From Candidatus Cloacimonadales bacterium (lineage in GTDB: Bacteria > Cloacimonadota > Cloacimonadia > Cloacimonadales > JAIOQZ01), in assembly GCA_963662655.2 (NCBI GenBank), contig CAXXTU010000002.1:704001-768000 (forward strand): a DNA stretch of 64,000 bases. The letters run 5' to 3'. This document shows positions 9,756-20,872 of the stretch, piece by piece. A program made the translations under genes and the position numbers. Under the pieces are notes generated by a model. It was not told the DNA's origin, searched no databases, and worked only from the letters and a program-made list of their open reading frames with translations. Numbering within the stretch: position 1 is the stretch's first letter; every line of letters starts with the position of its first letter.

Positions 9756-11834
9756 TTAATCTCCTTCAGTGAGTTGTCGAAACTCGGGTGCGACTCTCGG
9801 GTTCAGCTTCATGAACGCGTAAAGCAGTCCCGCGAATACAACCGCGAGGATCGAGAGCGTTACCCAGGATATCTGCCCGTTGGTGAAGAGCAGGTTATAG
9901 CCGGGAAGGTTCTCGCCGTATTGCAGCAGTAGCACGACGATGAAGTTGTTCATGAAATGTGCCAGCATCGCGATGAAGAAGCTTCCCGAGCGGACCATCA
10001 GGAACGCGATCCACATGCCCAGCATCGAAGCCGGCAGCAGGCGGAACGGATCCAGATGCATGATGCCGAACATCACCGACGAGATGATTACCGCGGCCGG
10101 TATGCCATACTTGCGGAATACCCTGAACATGTATCCGCGATAAACGAATTCCTCGCAGATGCCGGGCAGAACAGCCACAATCAGGATTTTCATCCAGAGG
10201 GAGGAGCCGTTCATGCTCATCATCTCCGAGAAGCGCGAGATATATTCTTCCGGAATGGGGTAGATCATGTTGATCGTTTCCACCACTTTTCCGGCGAAAA
10301 GATACGCGGGCAATGACATCAGGGCAACCAGCAGGAAATTGAGCGGGTTGGTGCCCTGCATCTTGAATGTCTTGGGGATGTCGACCTTCCCAACGCGGAG
10401 TATCAGGTATGTCGGCAGGAGGAACAGCAACAGGAGCGTCTTGATCAGCCCCATCGCCGGATCCTTGGCCTGCCACGAACCGCCGATGTAGAAAAGCGCC
10501 AGCAGTTGCAGCACGAAGATCAGAAAGGCGAAACCGGGCTGGAAGATGTTCTTCTTGTTCTTGCCCCAGAATTTCATCGTCTTTTCCTCTTCCACGCGGA
10601 ACAGGATGCCTTCGCGATTGAACAGCTTGACTGTCACGAAGATCATGACGATATCCAGCACGAGCGTGGAGCTGACGGTCACCAGGAAATTCACCATGCT
10701 GAACTGATCGAGCATGATTTCCTTGAAGAGCAGCGCGATGTTGATGATGGGGATGATGGCGAAACCGATATTCAGTTCGACGCCCGGAAGCATACTCACG
10801 AACGACATCAGGATCGTGATCATGATCACGGGGGAGAGGTAGGTGTTGGCTTCGCGCATGTTGCGGGAATAGGTCGAGATCGATATGAGGATACCCGAGA
10901 TCAGCGTGATCAGCGGGATCATTGCCAGGAAGATGAGCGAGAAATTGGATATCGGAAGCTGCATCTCCGACATGTTCAGTCCCGCTTGCGCCATCATGTG
11001 ACGGATGGAAAGGTACATGCTGAATAGGTTGAGGATCACAGAAACGAATTCGAAAGTCATCACGGTGAGGTATTTTCCAATGACGATCTCCGTGCGGTTG
11101 GCTGCGCTGATGAGCAGCGTCTCCAGGGTTCCGCGTTCCTTTTCGCCGGCGATGATGTCGGTGGCGATCACCGCGCCGCTGCTGACGGTGAGGATGATCA
11201 GCAGGTAGGGCAGGAACCTTCCAACCACCAGCCCGAGCATGCGCTGCGAGGACGCGATGTTCTCTGAATCGACCTCGATCGCCTCCAGGATTTCCTCCGA
11301 GACTTTAATCGCCTCCAGACGGTGCCCGACGAGCTGTTTCTCGGTGTCGCTCAGGATCGTGGATACCCTCCCGAAGCCTTCGGAGCTGCGGTCGTCCGCC
11401 TTGTCGTAGATCACCCGCACGGGATAGATGGGGAATGATCGTTTGTTACCGAGCGAGTCCTCTTCCTGCTTTTTGATGATGATCACGGACTGGAAGAAAC
11501 GGTCGTTCAACCGGGCGCGGAAATCATCTTCGGTAAGGAGCGTCGCGTCGCTTTGATCGACGTCTCTTTTGGGATAGATGTCGAACGACTTGTCGTTGGC
11601 GAAAGCATTGTAGATATGCTGTGAAAGCGTGTCCCTGACGGTATCGTGGATGTACATGCGTACGGTTTCCGCATCCAGCTTTTTCTCCTGTCGCATCATG
11701 AGCGACGAGAAAAGGATCATGATGATGGGGTAGAACACGATGGGAAGCATGATCGACGTAATGATGGTCCTGCGGTCCCGCAGGAGGTCTTTCAGTTCCT
11801 TCTTGTATATGGTGAAAACTTTATTCGCATTCAT
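9756..11834 (-). CDS. NatB-like ABC permease fused to a CPBP (CAAX/Abi) intramembrane protease
   Basis: KKELKDLLRDRRT, AGEKERGTLETLL; C-terminal EEFVYRG...FGIMH...AHFMNN. Confidence 0.85.
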   Translation of the reverse strand: MNANKVFTIYKKELKDLLRDRRTIITSIMLPIVFYPIIMILFSSLMMRQEKKLDAETVRMYIHDTVRDTLSQHIYNAFANDKSFDIYPKRDVDQSDATLLTEDDFRARLNDRFFQSVIIIKKQEEDSLGNKRSFPIYPVRVIYDKADDRSSEGFGRVSTILSDTEKQLVGHRLEAIKVSEEILEAIEVDSENIASSQRMLGLVVGRFLPYLLIILTVSSGAVIATDIIAGEKERGTLETLLISAANRTEIVIGKYLTVMTFEFVSVILNLFSMYLSIRHMMAQAGLNMSEMQLPISNFSLIFLAMIPLITLISGILISISTYSRNMREANTYLSPVIMITILMSFVSMLPGVELNIGFAIIPIINIALLFKEIMLDQFSMVNFLVTVSSTLVLDIVMIFVTVKLFNREGILFRVEEEKTMKFWGKNKKNIFQPGFAFLIFVLQLLALFYIGGSWQAKDPAMGLIKTLLLLFLLPTYLILRVGKVDIPKTFKMQGTNPLNFLLVALMSLPAYLFAGKVVETINMIYPIPEEYISRFSEMMSMNGSSLWMKILIVAVLPGICEEFVYRGYMFRVFRKYGIPAAVIISSVMFGIMHLDPFRLLPASMLGMWIAFLMVRSGSFFIAMLAHFMNNFIVVLLLQYGENLPGYNLLFTNGQISWVTLSILAVVFAGLLYAFMKLNPRVAPEFRQLTEGD

Positions 11835-12588
11835 CTTCATCGCCTCCTTCGCATTTACTCTGTTCCACATGGAAGATGAAGATATCGTCGAGGTCCTGCT
11901 TGCCGGTGGCTTCCTTGAGTTCGCCCCAGGTTCCTTCCGCCAGGAGTTTCCCCTTGTGGATCATCACGATGCGGTCGGCGATGCGCTCCGCTTCCCGCAT
12001 GATGTGCGTGGAGAAGAGGACGCATTTTCCGTCGTCACGGCATTTGCGGATGAACGAGACGATGTTGGATGCGGTGAGGATGTCCAGCCCCGAGGTCGGT
12101 TCGTCGAAGATCATCACGGGGGGATCGTGGATGATGGAACGGGCGATGGAGACCTTCTGCTTCATTCCGGTGGAGAGGAAGTCGATGCGGCGATCGAGGA
12201 AATCGTGCATGGAGAGGAAATCCGCCATGTTGTTGATGCGCTGATCGATGGTGTCGTCCGGGACGTCGTAGAGTCGCCCGAAATAGCTGATCATCTCTCG
12301 GGCCGTCAGGCGTGCGTAAAGTCCCGTGTCGCCGGAGAGGAAGCCGAGGTTTCTTCGGACGTTCCTCGGATCGGACTTGGTGTCGAAGCCTTCGATACTC
12401 GCGGAACCGCTGGTGGGCTGCAAGATGGTGGAGAGCATTCGCATGGTGGTGGTCTTCCCAGCGCCGTTGACTCCGACCAGCGTTACGATCTCTCCCTTTT
12501 CCACATGGAAGGAGAGCTGATCGACGGCGTTGAAGGTTTCACCCTTCTGTTTCTTGAATTCCTTTGTGAGATTTTTAACCTGAATCAT
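11821..12588 (-). CDS. NatA-like ABC transporter ATP-binding protein
   Basis: GVNGAGKTT, LSTGMKQK, IFDEPTSGLD, FSTH. Confidence 0.9.
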   Translation of the reverse strand: MIQVKNLTKEFKKQKGETFNAVDQLSFHVEKGEIVTLVGVNGAGKTTTMRMLSTILQPTSGSASIEGFDTKSDPRNVRRNLGFLSGDTGLYARLTAREMISYFGRLYDVPDDTIDQRINNMADFLSMHDFLDRRIDFLSTGMKQKVSIARSIIHDPPVMIFDEPTSGLDILTASNIVSFIRKCRDDGKCVLFSTHIMREAERIADRIVMIHKGKLLAEGTWGELKEATGKQDLDDIFIFHVEQSKCEGGDEDECE

Positions 12589-12721
12589 GAACAATCCTTG
12601 TGTTGATTGATGAATAATTTCCTGTAACGAATTTATTTTTCACACATTTTTTTGTTGACGCCATTCTATGCTTCTGTGAAATATATAGTTGCGAGTGACA
12701 TGAATTCCTTATGGAATTCAG

Positions 12722-13419: not shown

Positions 13420-15318
13420 TTAGTTCACGAACTGCCAGTACAGGGTAAAATTATAGTGCGTATCGCGCGCGAGATTGTCAAACAGGTTTTCCTCGCCGGT
13501 CAGGTTGTACGCCTCCAGGTTGATCTGGAACTTTTTCGTGATCTGGATGCCGAACCATCCGTCCAGCATGCGCGTCATGGGGATTTCCTCTCCGAGCCAG
13601 TTGGTGTAATCGGTTGTGTACAGATGCCTGAAGCCAAGCTTGAGCGCGTTGTTGTGGTGGACATCGTAGGCGAATTCGAGCTCCGTACTGCTCTTGAGGG
13701 CTGGAAGCTCCACGACCTCATCCGTGTCGCGGTACTTGATCTTCGAGCTCAGGAGGATGGTGAGACGGCTGATATCCGCCTGGATCCGGGTGAAGAGGTC
13801 CACGCCGGGAACATCGGGTGTTTTCTCGTTGTAGTTCGTGAGGTATTCTGCGACTCCGATATTCTTGAATTCAGATTGCGTGAAGCGCCAGTCCAAATCG
13901 AAATGAAGCCGGGAGAAACGCTTCTTGAAGCCGATTCCACCAAACCAGCCTGACTCCGTGAATTCGTAAAACCGGTTCCCGTACTCCTGACGGTCCCTTT
14001 CCACGCGGTACCCGGCGAACACCGAAAGCGTGTCGCCCAGCGCGATCCGGAAGGATTTCAGCGGATCGTAGCCGTCCTCGCGAAGAAACATTGCCTGCGT
14101 GTGGAACCTGTAGATATCCAGATGATGCTCCGCCATCCAGGAATCGTGCTCGAAGTCCCGTGATTGCGCGGTGATGTCGAAACGCTGGAAGAAGAGGCTG
14201 TCCCCCGCGTGGAGAACATAATAGCCGCTGGTGTCGTCAATCTGGTCTTCGGGATTGTTGTCGATCCGGTAAACCTTGCGCTGGTATTTGTATCCCACAT
14301 CGAGCCAGGGATTATCCCAGAAAATGCTGTGATCCCAAAGCCTTTCGTTTACCATCTCTTCACGCTGCGGCTGATAAACCTTCTCCAGCTTTTTAGACGA
14401 GATATCGTGATTGAAAATGTCGTTATCGAAGCGTATATCACCCAGAGAGGTATGCCAGGTAAGATGCGTGAGGAAGTCGCCGGTATGCTCGCTCTCCTCG
14501 AACATCTTTCCTTCGTACGCCATGTACTTCAGGTTGATATCGACAGGATCGAGTCCGAGAAATTGCCCTTTCCTGAAATTCACGTAGGCATGGTTCATCA
14601 GGTTGTCGCCGGTTCCGAGTTGCGCCTCCGCAAGTGCGACAGGGCAACGGTATTCGGAAACCTGAAATCGGTAGAAATTATCCACGCCTCCCACAGGATA
14701 GATCGTTTTCATCAATTGCAGCGCGTGGGCTCCGCTGATGGGGAGTTCGGACTGGATGAAGCCGTTCCTCGTGTAATAAACGGTTGACTGATATGGCGCA
14801 TACAGGTGGAGATTTTCCTGAGCGTACACCTCGCGCGTATCGCGGAAACGATTCAGATAATGCTCCCTCATCTCGCCGAGATTTTCTTCGACGATCTCTT
14901 TCAGCTCCGCGATGGTCATCGATGTGTCGACAATCACGGATTCATCCACCGAAGAATCCGCCCCAAGCAATACCACGTTGACGATGATCTCCGATACGAT
15001 TGGCTCGCCGTTTTTCATCGCCGGCGAGAATTTCCAGTCCGAAAGACTGGCAATCACGAGGGTGTCGAGGATCCCTTCGCCCGGAACGCTCACGGGAATA
15101 ACGTTTCCGAGCGTGCTGTCTGGCAGTACCTGGACGTTCAGGATCGCGATGCGTCCATCAAAGACCTGGTGCTCCGGTTCTTCAAGCATGCATGGATTCT
15201 GCAGGATCGCTTGCGCTTCGAACGTTAGTGAATCGTCGATTCGTACATCTTCCTGCGAGAAAAGCAGAGCTGCGGTCAGTAAAAGTATTGCTACAACCAG
15301 TTGTTTTCTATATACCAT
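13420..15318 (-). CDS. Secreted protein: TonB C-terminal-like domain plus putative outer-membrane beta-barrel
   Basis: Signal peptide; SLSDWKFSPAMKNGEPIVSEIIVNV; amphipathic aromatic strands ending YNLTGE...YNFTLYWQFVN. Confidence 0.6.
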   Translation of the reverse strand: MVYRKQLVVAILLLTAALLFSQEDVRIDDSLTFEAQAILQNPCMLEEPEHQVFDGRIAILNVQVLPDSTLGNVIPVSVPGEGILDTLVIASLSDWKFSPAMKNGEPIVSEIIVNVVLLGADSSVDESVIVDTSMTIAELKEIVEENLGEMREHYLNRFRDTREVYAQENLHLYAPYQSTVYYTRNGFIQSELPISGAHALQLMKTIYPVGGVDNFYRFQVSEYRCPVALAEAQLGTGDNLMNHAYVNFRKGQFLGLDPVDINLKYMAYEGKMFEESEHTGDFLTHLTWHTSLGDIRFDNDIFNHDISSKKLEKVYQPQREEMVNERLWDHSIFWDNPWLDVGYKYQRKVYRIDNNPEDQIDDTSGYYVLHAGDSLFFQRFDITAQSRDFEHDSWMAEHHLDIYRFHTQAMFLREDGYDPLKSFRIALGDTLSVFAGYRVERDRQEYGNRFYEFTESGWFGGIGFKKRFSRLHFDLDWRFTQSEFKNIGVAEYLTNYNEKTPDVPGVDLFTRIQADISRLTILLSSKIKYRDTDEVVELPALKSSTELEFAYDVHHNNALKLGFRHLYTTDYTNWLGEEIPMTRMLDGWFGIQITKKFQINLEAYNLTGEENLFDNLARDTHYNFTLYWQFVN

Positions 15319-16271: not shown

Positions 16272-16732
16272 GTAGATGAAAATCGAGAAATGCCGAGTTT
16301 CAGTCAACTGATTTATCGAATTGATCTAAAATGTGCGAGTGAATGGAATTGGCATAAATACGATTTCCCGATTGTAGAATCGTCAAATGCAAAGTGGATA
16401 ATCAGGATATCGTTCCCGGAGAGCCATTTCCGTATTATTTTTCTCTCCGATTCATCAATCGTCAATAAGGAAATGGCGTTACGCCGGTACGGTTTTCTGG
16501 ATATTTGCATCGCAAAATCTTACAGGGGATTAGATACCGGTTTTTTAAGGAAAAAATGATTGCCGGATTTCCCCCCTTTTAAATAGATTGTATATAATGC
16601 GATTTCTCCAGGATCGGAGATGCCTGAGGTATTGGCGGCGAAATCGCAAAACCTGATTTTCTATGTGGCTGTAAACGGGATTCGATGGCAACTCATGGGA
16701 AAATCGAAAAAGAAAATGGAATGGAAAGTGGC

Positions 16733-17431
16733 ATGAAGAAAAACGTTTTACTGATCATCCTTACGGTTCTTGTAGCTCTATCTGCGGGTCTCATCACTTA
16801 CAAGCTCATGTTCTTCAACAAATCATCGAACGTTGTCCCCAAAATGACGCATCTGAACCTCGGTGAAGCGGAGGAGCTCCTGAAGCAGCACGGCCTGAAC
16901 TACAAGGTCACTAAAATCGACAACACAGAGCCGGGACAGGACGATCCGGTGCTGAACCAGAAACCCAATCCCGGGACGAAGGTTTGGGAGAAAATGATCG
17001 TCGAACTGGTCGTCGCGAATCCGATGAAGGAGCTTCCGGATATCGATTCCCTGGAAGTTGCCGAGGCAGTCAGGATCGTGGTAGAGAAAGGTTTTACCGT
17101 TACGGATACGGTTTATTGTTACAACGAGTATATTCCGGCAGGATTGGCAGCCGGATACGAAGGCCAGAGCAATCACACGATACTGGACAAGCCGGTTACG
17201 ATCGTTGTTTCGAAAGGTCCGCAAATGGCGTATGTGCCGGATGTGATTGGTTTGCATTTCTCAAAAGCGGAGAAGATGCTGCAGGAAGCTGGATTCTCGA
17301 ATTTCGAGTATTCCCGGATGAGCTCGAAAATCATCCCTTCTCAATGCGTTGTGGATGTCGATCCCAAGGAAGGTCTGGTAAAGCGCAGCGCAACGCTCCA
17401 TATTTACATATCTTCGGGAAAGGGGAAATGA
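16733..17431 (+). CDS. Membrane-anchored PASTA-domain protein (three PASTA repeats, no kinase)
   Basis: N-terminal TM; VPKMTHL..AEELLKQHGL, LPDIDSL, VPDVIGL..AEKMLQEAGF. Confidence 0.85.
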   Translation: MKKNVLLIILTVLVALSAGLITYKLMFFNKSSNVVPKMTHLNLGEAEELLKQHGLNYKVTKIDNTEPGQDDPVLNQKPNPGTKVWEKMIVELVVANPMKELPDIDSLEVAEAVRIVVEKGFTVTDTVYCYNEYIPAGLAAGYEGQSNHTILDKPVTIVVSKGPQMAYVPDVIGLHFSKAEKMLQEAGFSNFEYSRMSSKIIPSQCVVDVDPKEGLVKRSATLHIYISSGKGK

Positions 17432-17470: not shown

Positions 17471-19681
17471 ATGAACAGAGTATTGATTATCGAAGACGAA
17501 CCCTTGATGCGGGACCTTTACAAGAGCCTGCTGGAGGATCAGTTTTACGAGCTAACGGAAGCCGAGAACGGAACGCAGGCCCTCGATATGGCCCAAGAGA
17601 CACCGTTCGATTTATACATCACGGACATCATGATGCCCAAGATGAGCGGCCTGGAATTCCTGAGAGAGCTCAAGAAAATCGATCCCAGCGCGCATGTGAT
17701 CATAGTGACGGGTTACGACGATATATCATACAACCGCAAGGCGATCGAGTATGGCGCCTGGCGTTATCTGGTCAAGCCGGTTGCTCGGTCGGAATTCCTG
17801 AACGTTATACGGGCGGGTTTGATCGAACACAACAGGCTTATCGATCCCGATTTTGCCGGTTTCGACATGCCTGCTCCGAAGGCGGAGCCAGAGGCGCAGG
17901 CGGAGCCGGAAGAAAGCGCAGGCATCGAACCGCTTCTCAAAGATATCGCTTTCAGCAAGCTCAAGCTTTTGAATGCTGAGGATGCGCTTTCAGCCTACAA
18001 TGAGAACGCCGACGCCATCTTCGAGTACGTCGAGCAGCCCATGCAGAACCTTCTGCACGAGATTGCGAGGCAGTTACCCGAATATATGCAATCCCTTCTG
18101 GAGATCGAGGAGAAGCTTTTCGAACCCATTAAACGTAAGCAGATGAAGAAAGAGTTCGCGGTCGATTACTACTACGGGGCCTTCTATCCCAAAGGCGGAA
18201 ATCGTTCGCAGGATGGTCAGCTCTACATCGCGATCAACGAGGACCGTTTCGAGTACGGGTTCATCGTTGGCGAGTACGGGGACGATCAAAGGCTCGTGTT
18301 TATCGGTAACCTTCGCAATCACAAAGACAAGCTAATCGAAGACTTGAACGACATCATCAAGGATGGTGCGATCATCAAAGGTACTTTGCTGGGCAAATTG
18401 CTCGATATCGACGAAGAAGACCTGAATAAAGCCGAGCCGATTCTACCGACTCCCATGAGCAGTCCGGGCGGAACGCATGCTTGCTACCAGATTCCACGCG
18501 AAAAGGCGGTAACGTTCAACCAGGAATCGATGGTGGAGATGGTTCTGCGAGGATTCCAAACCTTGTATCCGCTTTTCGTGCTAACCACCGGAAGCGACGC
18601 GATCGAGAAGCTCAACCGGAGTTCGCAGTACATTCCGTCGCAGGAAGAGCTCGAGCAATGGCTCGAGACGGAAGTGAAAGACGACTCCTTCCCGCAGAGT
18701 CAGCAGCCCAAACCAAGTGTGACGGAGTTTCCGACCCTAACTCAGGCACAGCCTGAACCTGCTCCCGAACCCGCGTATAAAGAGAATATTCCTGCATCTG
18801 CATCGGTGGTTCCCGAAAGAAGGCGTGAACCTGTACGCAGGATCATCGAGCACGTACCTGTGCGATCGGAGACTGTGCAGGAAAGCAGCTATCTATTTTA
18901 TCAGCCGAGATTTTACGCGGACGAACAGCAGCCGGTTCCAGAGCCGTCCAAGCGTTGGAAATCGCTCTTGAAGCGTAGGCGTCAGGTGTATATTCGCGGT
19001 GAGGCCGATGTGGAGATGCTGGCTGAAAACCTTGCGAGAGCCTTCATTCAGGGAACAGAAGGATTCCGCGATGCGCTGGTTCTACATCCTTCGCTGAAGT
19101 ATAGCGATCTGGTACGTCAGCCGAAATCCATTTACCCGGATGGCTTTTTCCCGCTGTTTTTCGAGGCTGCGGTGTCCATCGATGCGCCGTGTGTGCTGGT
19201 CTTGAACCACTTCGATACCTGCGACCAGCTCGAAATTCTCGGCGAGTATCTTTATCTTTTACAGAACCGCGGGACCAAGCTTTCGATAACGCGATCCAGC
19301 GAGTTCCTGGTTGTGCCGGAAAACGTGTATGTCATTGCGACCGGGAGCAAGGAAATCGAGGAAACGAGAGTGCGGCAGGTGTTTGCGCAAATCGATTACC
19401 AGCCCGATTACTCGATTCTCCTGGAGTTACTTCCCGAAGAGAAGGCCGAGGAGTTCCTCAATCTCTTGAACGAGTTCTTCGAGATGCAGCCATCGCTGGA
19501 GAATCACGTGGGTGTGGTACCGTTCCTGCGTGAGAAGGACGATCTGGAAGAAGCGATGCCGGATATCTGGGACATCGATGTATTGCCCCTTGCTGCTGCG
19601 ATGCTACAGAACAAAGGAGTGAGGCCTTCCGATTTCACTTGGGAGAAACTCCTCGAAACGAAACTGAAGGCCTGGACTTAA
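17471..19681 (+). CDS. Response regulator: receiver domain fused to McrB-like N-terminal domain and degenerate McrB-type AAA+ domain
   Basis: Receiver motifs IEDE, ITDIMMPKMSG, VTG, LVKP; YYYGAFYPKGG..DGQLY..FEYGF; HPSLKYSDL, ILGEYLYLLQNR, VPENVYVIAT. Confidence 0.7.
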   Translation: MNRVLIIEDEPLMRDLYKSLLEDQFYELTEAENGTQALDMAQETPFDLYITDIMMPKMSGLEFLRELKKIDPSAHVIIVTGYDDISYNRKAIEYGAWRYLVKPVARSEFLNVIRAGLIEHNRLIDPDFAGFDMPAPKAEPEAQAEPEESAGIEPLLKDIAFSKLKLLNAEDALSAYNENADAIFEYVEQPMQNLLHEIARQLPEYMQSLLEIEEKLFEPIKRKQMKKEFAVDYYYGAFYPKGGNRSQDGQLYIAINEDRFEYGFIVGEYGDDQRLVFIGNLRNHKDKLIEDLNDIIKDGAIIKGTLLGKLLDIDEEDLNKAEPILPTPMSSPGGTHACYQIPREKAVTFNQESMVEMVLRGFQTLYPLFVLTTGSDAIEKLNRSSQYIPSQEELEQWLETEVKDDSFPQSQQPKPSVTEFPTLTQAQPEPAPEPAYKENIPASASVVPERRREPVRRIIEHVPVRSETVQESSYLFYQPRFYADEQQPVPEPSKRWKSLLKRRRQVYIRGEADVEMLAENLARAFIQGTEGFRDALVLHPSLKYSDLVRQPKSIYPDGFFPLFFEAAVSIDAPCVLVLNHFDTCDQLEILGEYLYLLQNRGTKLSITRSSEFLVVPENVYVIATGSKEIEETRVRQVFAQIDYQPDYSILLELLPEEKAEEFLNLLNEFFEMQPSLENHVGVVPFLREKDDLEEAMPDIWDIDVLPLAAAMLQNKGVRPSDFTWEKLLETKLKAWT

Positions 19682-20872
19682 CTACTTAATCAGATTGGCC
19701 TTCTCGATCTCAATTTCCTCCAATTTACCGTCAACTTCCCGCGTAATCCTGATCGATTCGACTTTCGGATCGTAGAGCCACAGGCGGATCTGGCGATTTT
19801 CCAGCTCCACCATTCCCAAGCCGTTCACGGCGGTGATTTTATCTTCGAGCGCGATTCCGGCTTTTTCGGCGGGAGAGTTCTGCCAGATTCCCATCACTTC
19901 AAGCGCTTTGCCGGTGTTTACGATGTTCAGTCCGGTGGAGAAAAGAATGGATTGCTCCTCGCCGTCGCAAGGCTGGAACAGTACTTTGCGCTTCGGGTAG
20001 TCCATTGTCACAAGGTAATCATCCATGAAGTCTTTACCGATCAGGATGGTTTTCTCATCGATCATGCCCGGAAGGTCCGCAAACAATACGGGAACGTCGC
20101 TGAGCACGATATCGCCAATTCGTACCTCGTCGAGAACGGTCATGACGTTCCGGGTCTGGGTTGTAAACGGCCACTTGGCGAAGAAACCGGTAGCGCCGAT
20201 TGATTTCTGTCTGATGTGCTCCGGCATGTCTTCCAAGCGATCATACGGTAGGACGAAGGCGTAGTTCAGGCCGGTATCTATAAGCCCATTGAATTTGAGG
20301 TCGCCGTTGATGACGGTTTTCACGGATGGGAAATAGGGGAAGAGAATCTTCATGTCCATGAGTACATCGGAGTCGTTTTCTTTCACAAGCTTCGAGGAGT
20401 TCCTGAACAGAATCTCATTTCGCCGATAGTCGAATGCGACCTGAAAGAAGCGAAGGTAATCGGATCCCACCATGCCCTGAATGGAGTTCTTGCTTAGCTT
20501 GAAAGTGTCTCCAAAAGGCATGATGACCGCTTTCAAGTCGTTTACTTCAACTTTTGCAAGCTTGAGGCTGGCGATTTTCGCAAGTGAGACGCCTTCCTGC
20601 GGGGACTCGTGTTTCTCGAGCTGAAGGGAATCGGCCAACGAGTTTTCGAGCATCGTCATGCCCCCGGTGTCGATAATAACCGGCAATGTGTGGTCATCGA
20701 AATCCGCATCGACTAAAATGACATGCGAGCCTTGCAGTGTAAACGGTACGGTGAGTTCGTTTTCAATAGCTTTCGGGACTCCGCCCTTGAACTTTTCAAA
20801 CATCTTTATCTTGGTGTTCGTGCATCCTGTTGCGGCGAGAATTAGAATGGCCAATATGAGAATGTTTCTCAT
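19682..20872 (-). CDS. Lipoprotein with two retropepsin-like aspartyl protease domains and a C-terminal PDZ domain
   Basis: Lipobox ATGC; IIDTGG and LIDTGL; GMVGSDYL and LIGKDFM; SPAEKAGI..DKITAVNG. Confidence 0.85.
   Translation of the reverse strand: MRNILILAILILAATGCTNTKIKMFEKFKGGVPKAIENELTVPFTLQGSHVILVDADFDDHTLPVIIDTGGMTMLENSLADSLQLEKHESPQEGVSLAKIASLKLAKVEVNDLKAVIMPFGDTFKLSKNSIQGMVGSDYLRFFQVAFDYRRNEILFRNSSKLVKENDSDVLMDMKILFPYFPSVKTVINGDLKFNGLIDTGLNYAFVLPYDRLEDMPEHIRQKSIGATGFFAKWPFTTQTRNVMTVLDEVRIGDIVLSDVPVLFADLPGMIDEKTILIGKDFMDDYLVTMDYPKRKVLFQPCDGEEQSILFSTGLNIVNTGKALEVMGIWQNSPAEKAGIALEDKITAVNGLGMVELENRQIRLWLYDPKVESIRITREVDGKLEEIEIEKANLIK

Follow-up and report, generated by a model that had tools for sequence, protein, structure and literature searches.

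We found that an open reading frame in a Candidatus Cloacimonadales genome encodes a response regulator whose output is of a new type: a complete receiver (REC) domain is joined to two further domains that resemble those of the restriction GTPase McrB, and the catalytic motifs of that GTPase have been lost. The protein is very probably an McrB-derived signalling protein that no longer restricts DNA and is maintained by selection.

A receiver domain is fused to a degenerate McrB

The gene lies in the window analysed here, a stretch of 64,000 nucleotides, and encodes a 736-aa protein (P0001, from its own genome G000). The features of the locus are as follows.

16685..17431 (+): membrane-anchored protein carrying three PASTA domains and no kinase domain (Pfam PF03793, three copies, E 8e-21)
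17471..19681 (+): gene for the fusion of REC, YktB/DUF2461-fold domain and pseudo-McrB AAA+ domain
17480..17809 (+): receiver domain with complete canonical residues (Pfam E 3e-31, residue check, trees)
17831..17923 (+): linker 1, Pro/Glu-rich and variable (35-59% identity among orthologs)
17924..18634 (+): middle domain of YktB/DUF1054/DUF2461 fold, which a subfamily of intact McrBs carries ahead of its AAA+ domain
18635..18901 (+): linker 2, Pro/Glu-rich, low model confidence (pLDDT mostly <50; indels among orthologs)
18902..19672 (+): McrB-type AAA+ domain and lid, catalytic motifs lost and core retained (column conservation, fold matches, purifying selection)
18995..19018 (+): former Walker A, two residues deleted and Lys replaced by Val (alignment)
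19205..19210 (+): former Walker B, Asp-Glu replaced by Asn-His at residues 579-580 (alignment)
19337..19351 (+): former NxxD signature loop, deleted (alignment)
19373..19384 (+): former sensor-II/arginine-finger pair, both arginines replaced (Q636-V637; alignment)
19682..20872 (-): convergent aspartyl protease-PDZ gene at the position expected for mcrC (Pfam)

Pfam recognised only the receiver domain in P0001 (residues 4-113), and E8-D9, D52 (codon 17624-17626), T80 and K102-P103 were all present, as the first-pass annotation had read from the sequence. The ~600 non-REC residues gave no significant match in direct Pfam, NCBIfam, PADLOC and PDB-sequence searches, Pfam detected no helix-turn-helix (HTH), and a promoter and terminator scan stayed at chance level. 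Single-sequence folding of the whole protein gave a pLDDT of 34.7 and was unusable. The ORF coordinates agreed with the earlier description of a 39-bp gap between the end of the PASTA gene and the fusion gene, and of a convergent gene downstream. The PASTA gene may instead start at the ATG at 16736. The convergent gene begins at the base right after the fusion stop codon and is a non-conserved neighbour, adjoining the fusion in 2 of 5 genomes. An assembly artefact was ruled out, as the motif erosions are common to orthologs. Elsewhere in the window, 13420-15318 (-) encodes a 632-aa exported protein that gives the impression, from sequence, of a TonB C-terminal-like N-terminal part followed by a barrel-like region, and 9756-12594 (-) reads as an ABC ATPase and a 704-aa permease apparently fused to a CAAX-protease-like domain.

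Both non-REC domains trace to McrB

A profile built from five fusion orthologs retrieved 93 proteins that contain both domains but no REC, and 86 of them keep all four GTPase motifs; relatives of this kind precede mcrC in 62 of 64 cases. The recurrence of the domain pair in these 93 proteins upholds the initial suggestion that the middle domain resembles the N-terminal domain of some McrB homologs. The structural model of P0001 matched the McrB AAA+ fold, with sigma54-activator chains far lower (1ny5 at rank 40), and a match to the YktB/DUF1054/DUF2461 fold spanned the whole middle domain, so that both folds expected beforehand were recovered. The alignment behind this model consisted mostly of intact McrBs and the sequence profile of fusion orthologs only; profile search and fold search both identified an McrB-type AAA+ domain. 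The gathering score of DUF2461 (PF09365) is reached by some intact homologs only, and not by P0001. Among the fold matches listed, the McrB-N structures 3ssc, 3ssd and 3sse were absent, which carries no weight either way, and the link from the middle domain to McrB-N is transitive, through fold likeness. These data support the derivation of both non-REC domains from McrB.

The GTPase motifs are lost and no mcrC was detected

At 104 AAA+ columns, at least 90% of 37 intact homologs share the residue; P0001 retains 41 of these columns, chiefly in the core. The Walker A pattern GxxGxGK[T/S] is broken by a two-residue deletion and a K to V replacement in all five genus orthologs, and the NxxD signature is missing in all nine aligned fusion proteins. 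With Walker B and the arginine pair also lost in the alignment, the earlier claim that every catalytic McrB motif is eroded held. TgMcrB depends on the equivalents of the lost residues for hydrolysis or for hexamer assembly, according to the available text of Niu 2020 (PMC7680126), and E. coli McrB D279N, to which the substitution at residue 579 of P0001 is equivalent, fails to oligomerise (Nirwan 2019, PMC6344862, available text). Given these requirements, we strongly infer that P0001 is catalytically dead; it would neither hydrolyse GTP nor form a GTP-driven ring. GTPase motifs are also partly or fully eroded in three McrB-like proteins that have both domains but no REC (P0011, P0094 and P0095), all four being lost in P0094; these are possibly independent pseudo-McrBs.

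Helix-2 inserts hold the McrC tip (Niu 2020, PMC7680126, available text); the insert of P0001 is ~10 residues short, and none of the four fusion lineages with a retained AAA+ domain has it at full length, the insert being either shortened or deleted. The absence of McrC proposed from the window alone extended to the genomes: PF10117 (McrC) matched in none of the five fusion genomes and in one of eight family genomes (G007), in a search of incomplete sensitivity (positive in only 2 of 14 controls), and a profile of 27 cognate McrCs gave no match at E<=1 in the six frames of G000 while recovering the G007 McrC at 6e-26. A DUF2357 search was uninformative, with no match even in controls.

These results bear on whether the protein still serves defence, as a decoy or regulator of McrBC or as an McrC-independent sensor of modified phage DNA. 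Such a role would suit its whole McrB ancestry, and parallels exist in the available text of two studies: E. coli produces modulator McrBs from mcrB (PMC12707154), and NxD-clade McrBC systems often stand beside two-component genes, with CnuA carrying a REC domain (PMC11090510). We nevertheless consider it improbable. The decoy or regulator variant, raised in the first-pass annotation, finds little support: no mcrC was detected in any of the five fusion genomes, the McrC-contacting insert is reduced, and G007, the sole family member with McrBC, lacks the fusion. No defence genes were recognised among the annotated flanking ORFs. The fusion is a single-copy gene of genome-like GC (0.526 vs 0.512) in all four genomes of the genus, whereas defence genes are typically patchy in occurrence; the same observations do not favour recent horizontal acquisition.

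The degenerate domains are under selection and decay in steps

P0001 has four orthologs at 66-70% identity, three of them in other genomes of the genus. Across four species, the AAA+ domain showed pN of 0.11-0.20 and pS of 0.62-0.78. The first-pass annotation had anticipated dN/dS below 1, and in the correctable pairs the ratio was 0.06-0.09 for the AAA+ domain (five of six pairs, the sixth being saturated) and 0.07-0.12 for the middle domain (three of six, the others saturated); synonymous sites are near saturation, so that dS is imprecise and the direction of selection clear. At the level of sequence, these values show that the middle domain and the apparently dead AAA+ domain are under purifying selection. 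Identity between species was 88-95% in REC and 69-81% in the middle and AAA+ domains, compared with 35-59% in linker 1. In the AAA+ tree the stem spans several changes per site and the tips only 0.05-0.24, a history of rapid change followed by new constraint. It is therefore most improbable that REC alone matters and that the McrB part hitch-hikes as a decaying relic. Loss of the AAA+ domain in one genome and the very long stem branches would fit such a relic, but the frame is open in four species with synonymous sites near saturation, and the identity of both domains relative to linker 1 largely refutes it.

The middle domain was present in 5 of 232 phylum genomes, namely four of genus g1 (G000-G003) and G006. 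The architecture, whose conservation across the phylum the first-pass annotation had proposed to check, is not unique to one assembly: it occurs in these five among the 232 genomes and in metagenomic proteins. The additional metagenomic fusions displayed graded decay, with catalytic motifs degraded to differing extents among lineages. Walker A is intact and the Walker B Glu lost in P0158/P0159; Walker A is intact or near-intact and the helix-2 insert deleted in P0007 and P0160; and P0008 retains the Walker B Asp-Glu and has a long insertion between REC and the middle domain, which is charged and probably coiled-coil. As a full or near Walker A is kept in P0159, P0007, P0008 and P0160, nucleotide binding may persist in these lineages. 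P0006 ends after the middle domain, and its genome, G006, contains no AAA+ match (one genome). The middle domain is the sole McrB part common to all fusion members.

The fusion RECs formed one group (93/89), comprising 10 rows and including P0144, which was assigned by REC likeness and lacks the middle domain; this related REC carries only a short helical tail. Seven of eight fusions grouped together in the middle-domain tree (SH 97), with P0008 outside, and the AAA+ tree gave the fusions a support of 73 with long branches meeting. A single origin fits these data but is not proven: long branches can fake monophyly, and the placement of P0008 and the AAA+ support count against it. Among viral contigs, 14 pattern matches included no relative of the middle domain, and a metagenome scan with P0007 yielded one fusion among 80 loci (L106), the remainder matching through REC only. 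Hosts are known from assemblies alone, and the genomes are few.

The receiver descends from a pilus-locus lineage

G000 encodes 66 REC domains, among which the nearest to the fusion REC is that of a 512-aa REC-PilT protein at 56% identity, the next being at 35%. The REC-PilT gene (G000:C2:1467070-1468605, L186:7070-8605; 85-90% conserved in the genus) lies behind pilC, pilB and pilin-like genes, and in both G000 and G006 it follows the pilin-like genes of the pilus operon. In a 44-row tree, whose 12 outgroup rows were available high-scoring RECs and not a global sample, fusion RECs and REC-PilT RECs were sisters (100/99), placing the fusion REC in a pilus-locus lineage. The next group, weakly placed (94/56), was a 285-aa REC protein, whose gene immediately precedes pilT within the pilus operon of G004, G007 and G008, all without the fusion. 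This protein (L277:9507-10361, L228:8356-9210, L201-L217) stands before pilT in many Cloacimonadota pilus operons and had no match in G000-G003 and G006; its output weakly resembles a cNMP-binding domain (E 4e-4 for one of the two proteins examined).

REC-PilT occurred in 13 of 232 phylum genomes, including all five with the fusion; the other eight had no middle-domain match, and the three family members without the fusion had no REC-PilT match. A second REC-PilT copy is carried by G013. This co-occurrence lies within one family and its instances are not independent; since rpoB leaves genera g1, g2 and g4 unresolved, co-loss is indistinguishable from shared gain. The REC-PilT ATPase keeps Walker A, but the His-box His is lost in all 13 sequences covering the region, the Walker B Glu position is altered in 11 of 13, and the Asp box is eroded, as in its PilT paralogs. 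Because PilT requires these motifs (PMC6762196, available text), the REC-PilT ATPase looks like a disabled NTPase, as both outputs of this REC family then do. It is possible, if doubtful, that a private Cloacimonadota receiver family captured disabled PilT and McrB motors as parallel outputs of one phosphorylation signal.

No kinase was recognised among the flanking genes of the fusion, which is an orphan response regulator and is never near pilus genes. Over the 17 positions of the docking surface, the fusion REC matched REC-PilT at 8, tied with an unrelated regulator, and the BLOSUM lead of REC-PilT was modest (26 vs 18; 48 vs 42). Shared REC ancestry need not imply a shared kinase.

Two further loci of G000 were noted near pilus genes. 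The second type IV pilus operon ends ~1.5 kb before a stand-alone DUF2461-like gene (G000:C2:2166191-2166943), a weak match at E 0.014 that may be due to chance. A second pilT and pilM-like genes are closely preceded by four genes that read as tandem flagellin-like genes (G000:C2:2405286-2409637).

A PASTA gene accompanies the fusion

The PASTA gene was directly upstream on the same strand in all six loci with upstream DNA (G000-G003, G006 and L106), a count that excludes the fusions P0005, P0007, P0008, P0159 and P0160, and it stays while the remaining flanking genes vary. The conservation of this neighbour, on which the first-pass annotation had asked for a check, was thereby established for these loci. 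The PASTA paralog had its best scores in exactly the five fusion genomes and no match in the other three family members; in 24 other genomes it weakly matched shorter PASTA proteins or a kinase, and it is distinct from the two other PASTA genes of G000.

An alternative is envelope sensing independent of the pilus, in which the PASTA protein would sense cell-wall fragments and signal through an unlinked kinase, the pilus ancestry of REC being mere history. The constancy of the gene beside changing flanks and the restriction of its best matches to the fusion genomes speak for it. The basis, however, is gene adjacency alone, and the PASTA protein has, judging by its sequence, only a short cytoplasmic tail and no kinase, hence no evident direct relay. 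We regard this explanation as unlikely; it is also compatible, as an extra input, with the pilus-circuit switch proposed below.

The middle-domain surface and a proposed mechanism

An Asn and a Trp conserved in at least 90% of the 37 intact middle domains were replaced in all eight fusions. By strand order these would correspond to the finger loop and Trp49 of McrB-N, as described in PMC3424535. With a net charge of -13 the middle domain of P0001 is acidic, but its intact counterparts also have a negative median (-8.5), and charge is therefore a poor guide to DNA binding. Middle domains of genus g1 carry a basic loop at 220-227.

The fusion might be a non-canonical DNA-binding response regulator, whose phospho-gated, McrB-derived middle domain still reads DNA, at chromosomal sites or in pilus-imported DNA, with the AAA+ domain merely aiding dimerisation. 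We hold this to be somewhat unlikely. The link to McrB-N is transitive, 2a8e is not shown to bind DNA in the literature cited, and the presumed finger-loop and Trp49 counterparts are replaced, differently among fusion lineages. Given the replacement of Asn and Trp in all fusions, protein binding is favoured over retained DNA reading.

Our tentative preference is thus that the protein acts not in restriction but in the circuit controlling type IV pili, as a protein-binding switch gated by phosphorylation. A REC related to that of the pilus operon is fused to the last two domains of McrB, and the catalytic motifs have decayed to differing degrees among lineages, presumably with loss of GTP hydrolysis and of the GTP-driven ring. 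D52 would be phosphorylated, probably by a kinase that also serves REC-PilT, and this phosphorylation may expose or dimerise the middle domain. The weakest step comes last: the middle domain would have exchanged modified DNA for proteins as its ligands, with the dead AAA+ domain as an additional surface for docking, and the output would be tied to an envelope site by the PASTA protein encoded alongside. Domestication of a defence protein as the output of a two-component pathway, which the first-pass annotation had put forward, is accordingly the best reading of an intact REC joined to a dead but selected McrB part, and still a matter of interpretation.

Relation to known systems

Pilus-regulating REC proteins without a DNA output include FrzS, RomR and PATAN-REC. 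The shared mode that we propose, REC plus interaction surfaces plus Pro/Glu-rich linkers acting on the pilus machine, is a works-like comparison only. NtrC-type activators have REC controlling an AAA+ domain in one chain; the AAA+ domain of the fusion differs in being of McrB type, without catalytic motifs and without an HTH detected by Pfam. YktB/DUF1054 (2a8e, 3mqz) and DUF2461/TIGR02453 are stand-alone proteins of uncharacterised function, whereas the corresponding domain of the fusion is a response-regulator output in which the family's conserved loop residues are replaced. From McrB itself (E. coli 6hz4/6ut6; T. gammatolerans 6ut3-6ut7) the fusion differs by its N-terminal REC and PASTA neighbour, four lost motifs, a shortened helix-2 insert and the absence of mcrC. 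It fails five features of McrB membership and should not be filed as McrB.

RECs likewise occur in McrBC contexts in CoCoNuT Type I-B CnuA and NxD-clade McrBC (PMC11090510, available text). In those systems a coiled-coil protein distinct from the active CnuB/CnuC pair next to it carries the REC (Bell 2024, PMC11090510, available text), whereas the fusion REC is joined to an NxxD-clade McrB without catalytic motifs or McrC. Four CoCoNuT supplement files gave no match for five terms, and the available parts of PMC12707154 and bioRxiv 10.64898/2026.08.31.748284 do not mention a REC-McrB fusion. In the literature searched, with subscription papers mostly outside its scope, we found no report of the REC-McrB architecture, nor of a REC-PilT fusion or Cloacimonadota pilus response regulators. 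A distinct example, in which an immune-like system controls some other process, is given in the available text of PMC13236601.

The fusion is a clean case of a restriction-system subunit that has been selectively kept after losing its enzyme motifs and nuclease. Its lineages form a natural series, from a retained P-loop through a deleted one to loss of the AAA+ domain, that allows the purpose of the dead AAA+ domain to be tested. The fusion also gives access to the YktB/DUF2461 fold, which is uncharacterised, and it points to a second unreported object, the REC-fused degenerate PilT. If one receiver family did capture both disabled motors, an anti-phage enzyme would have been domesticated into the control of pilus and envelope, and the steps of its decay could still be seen among the lineages.
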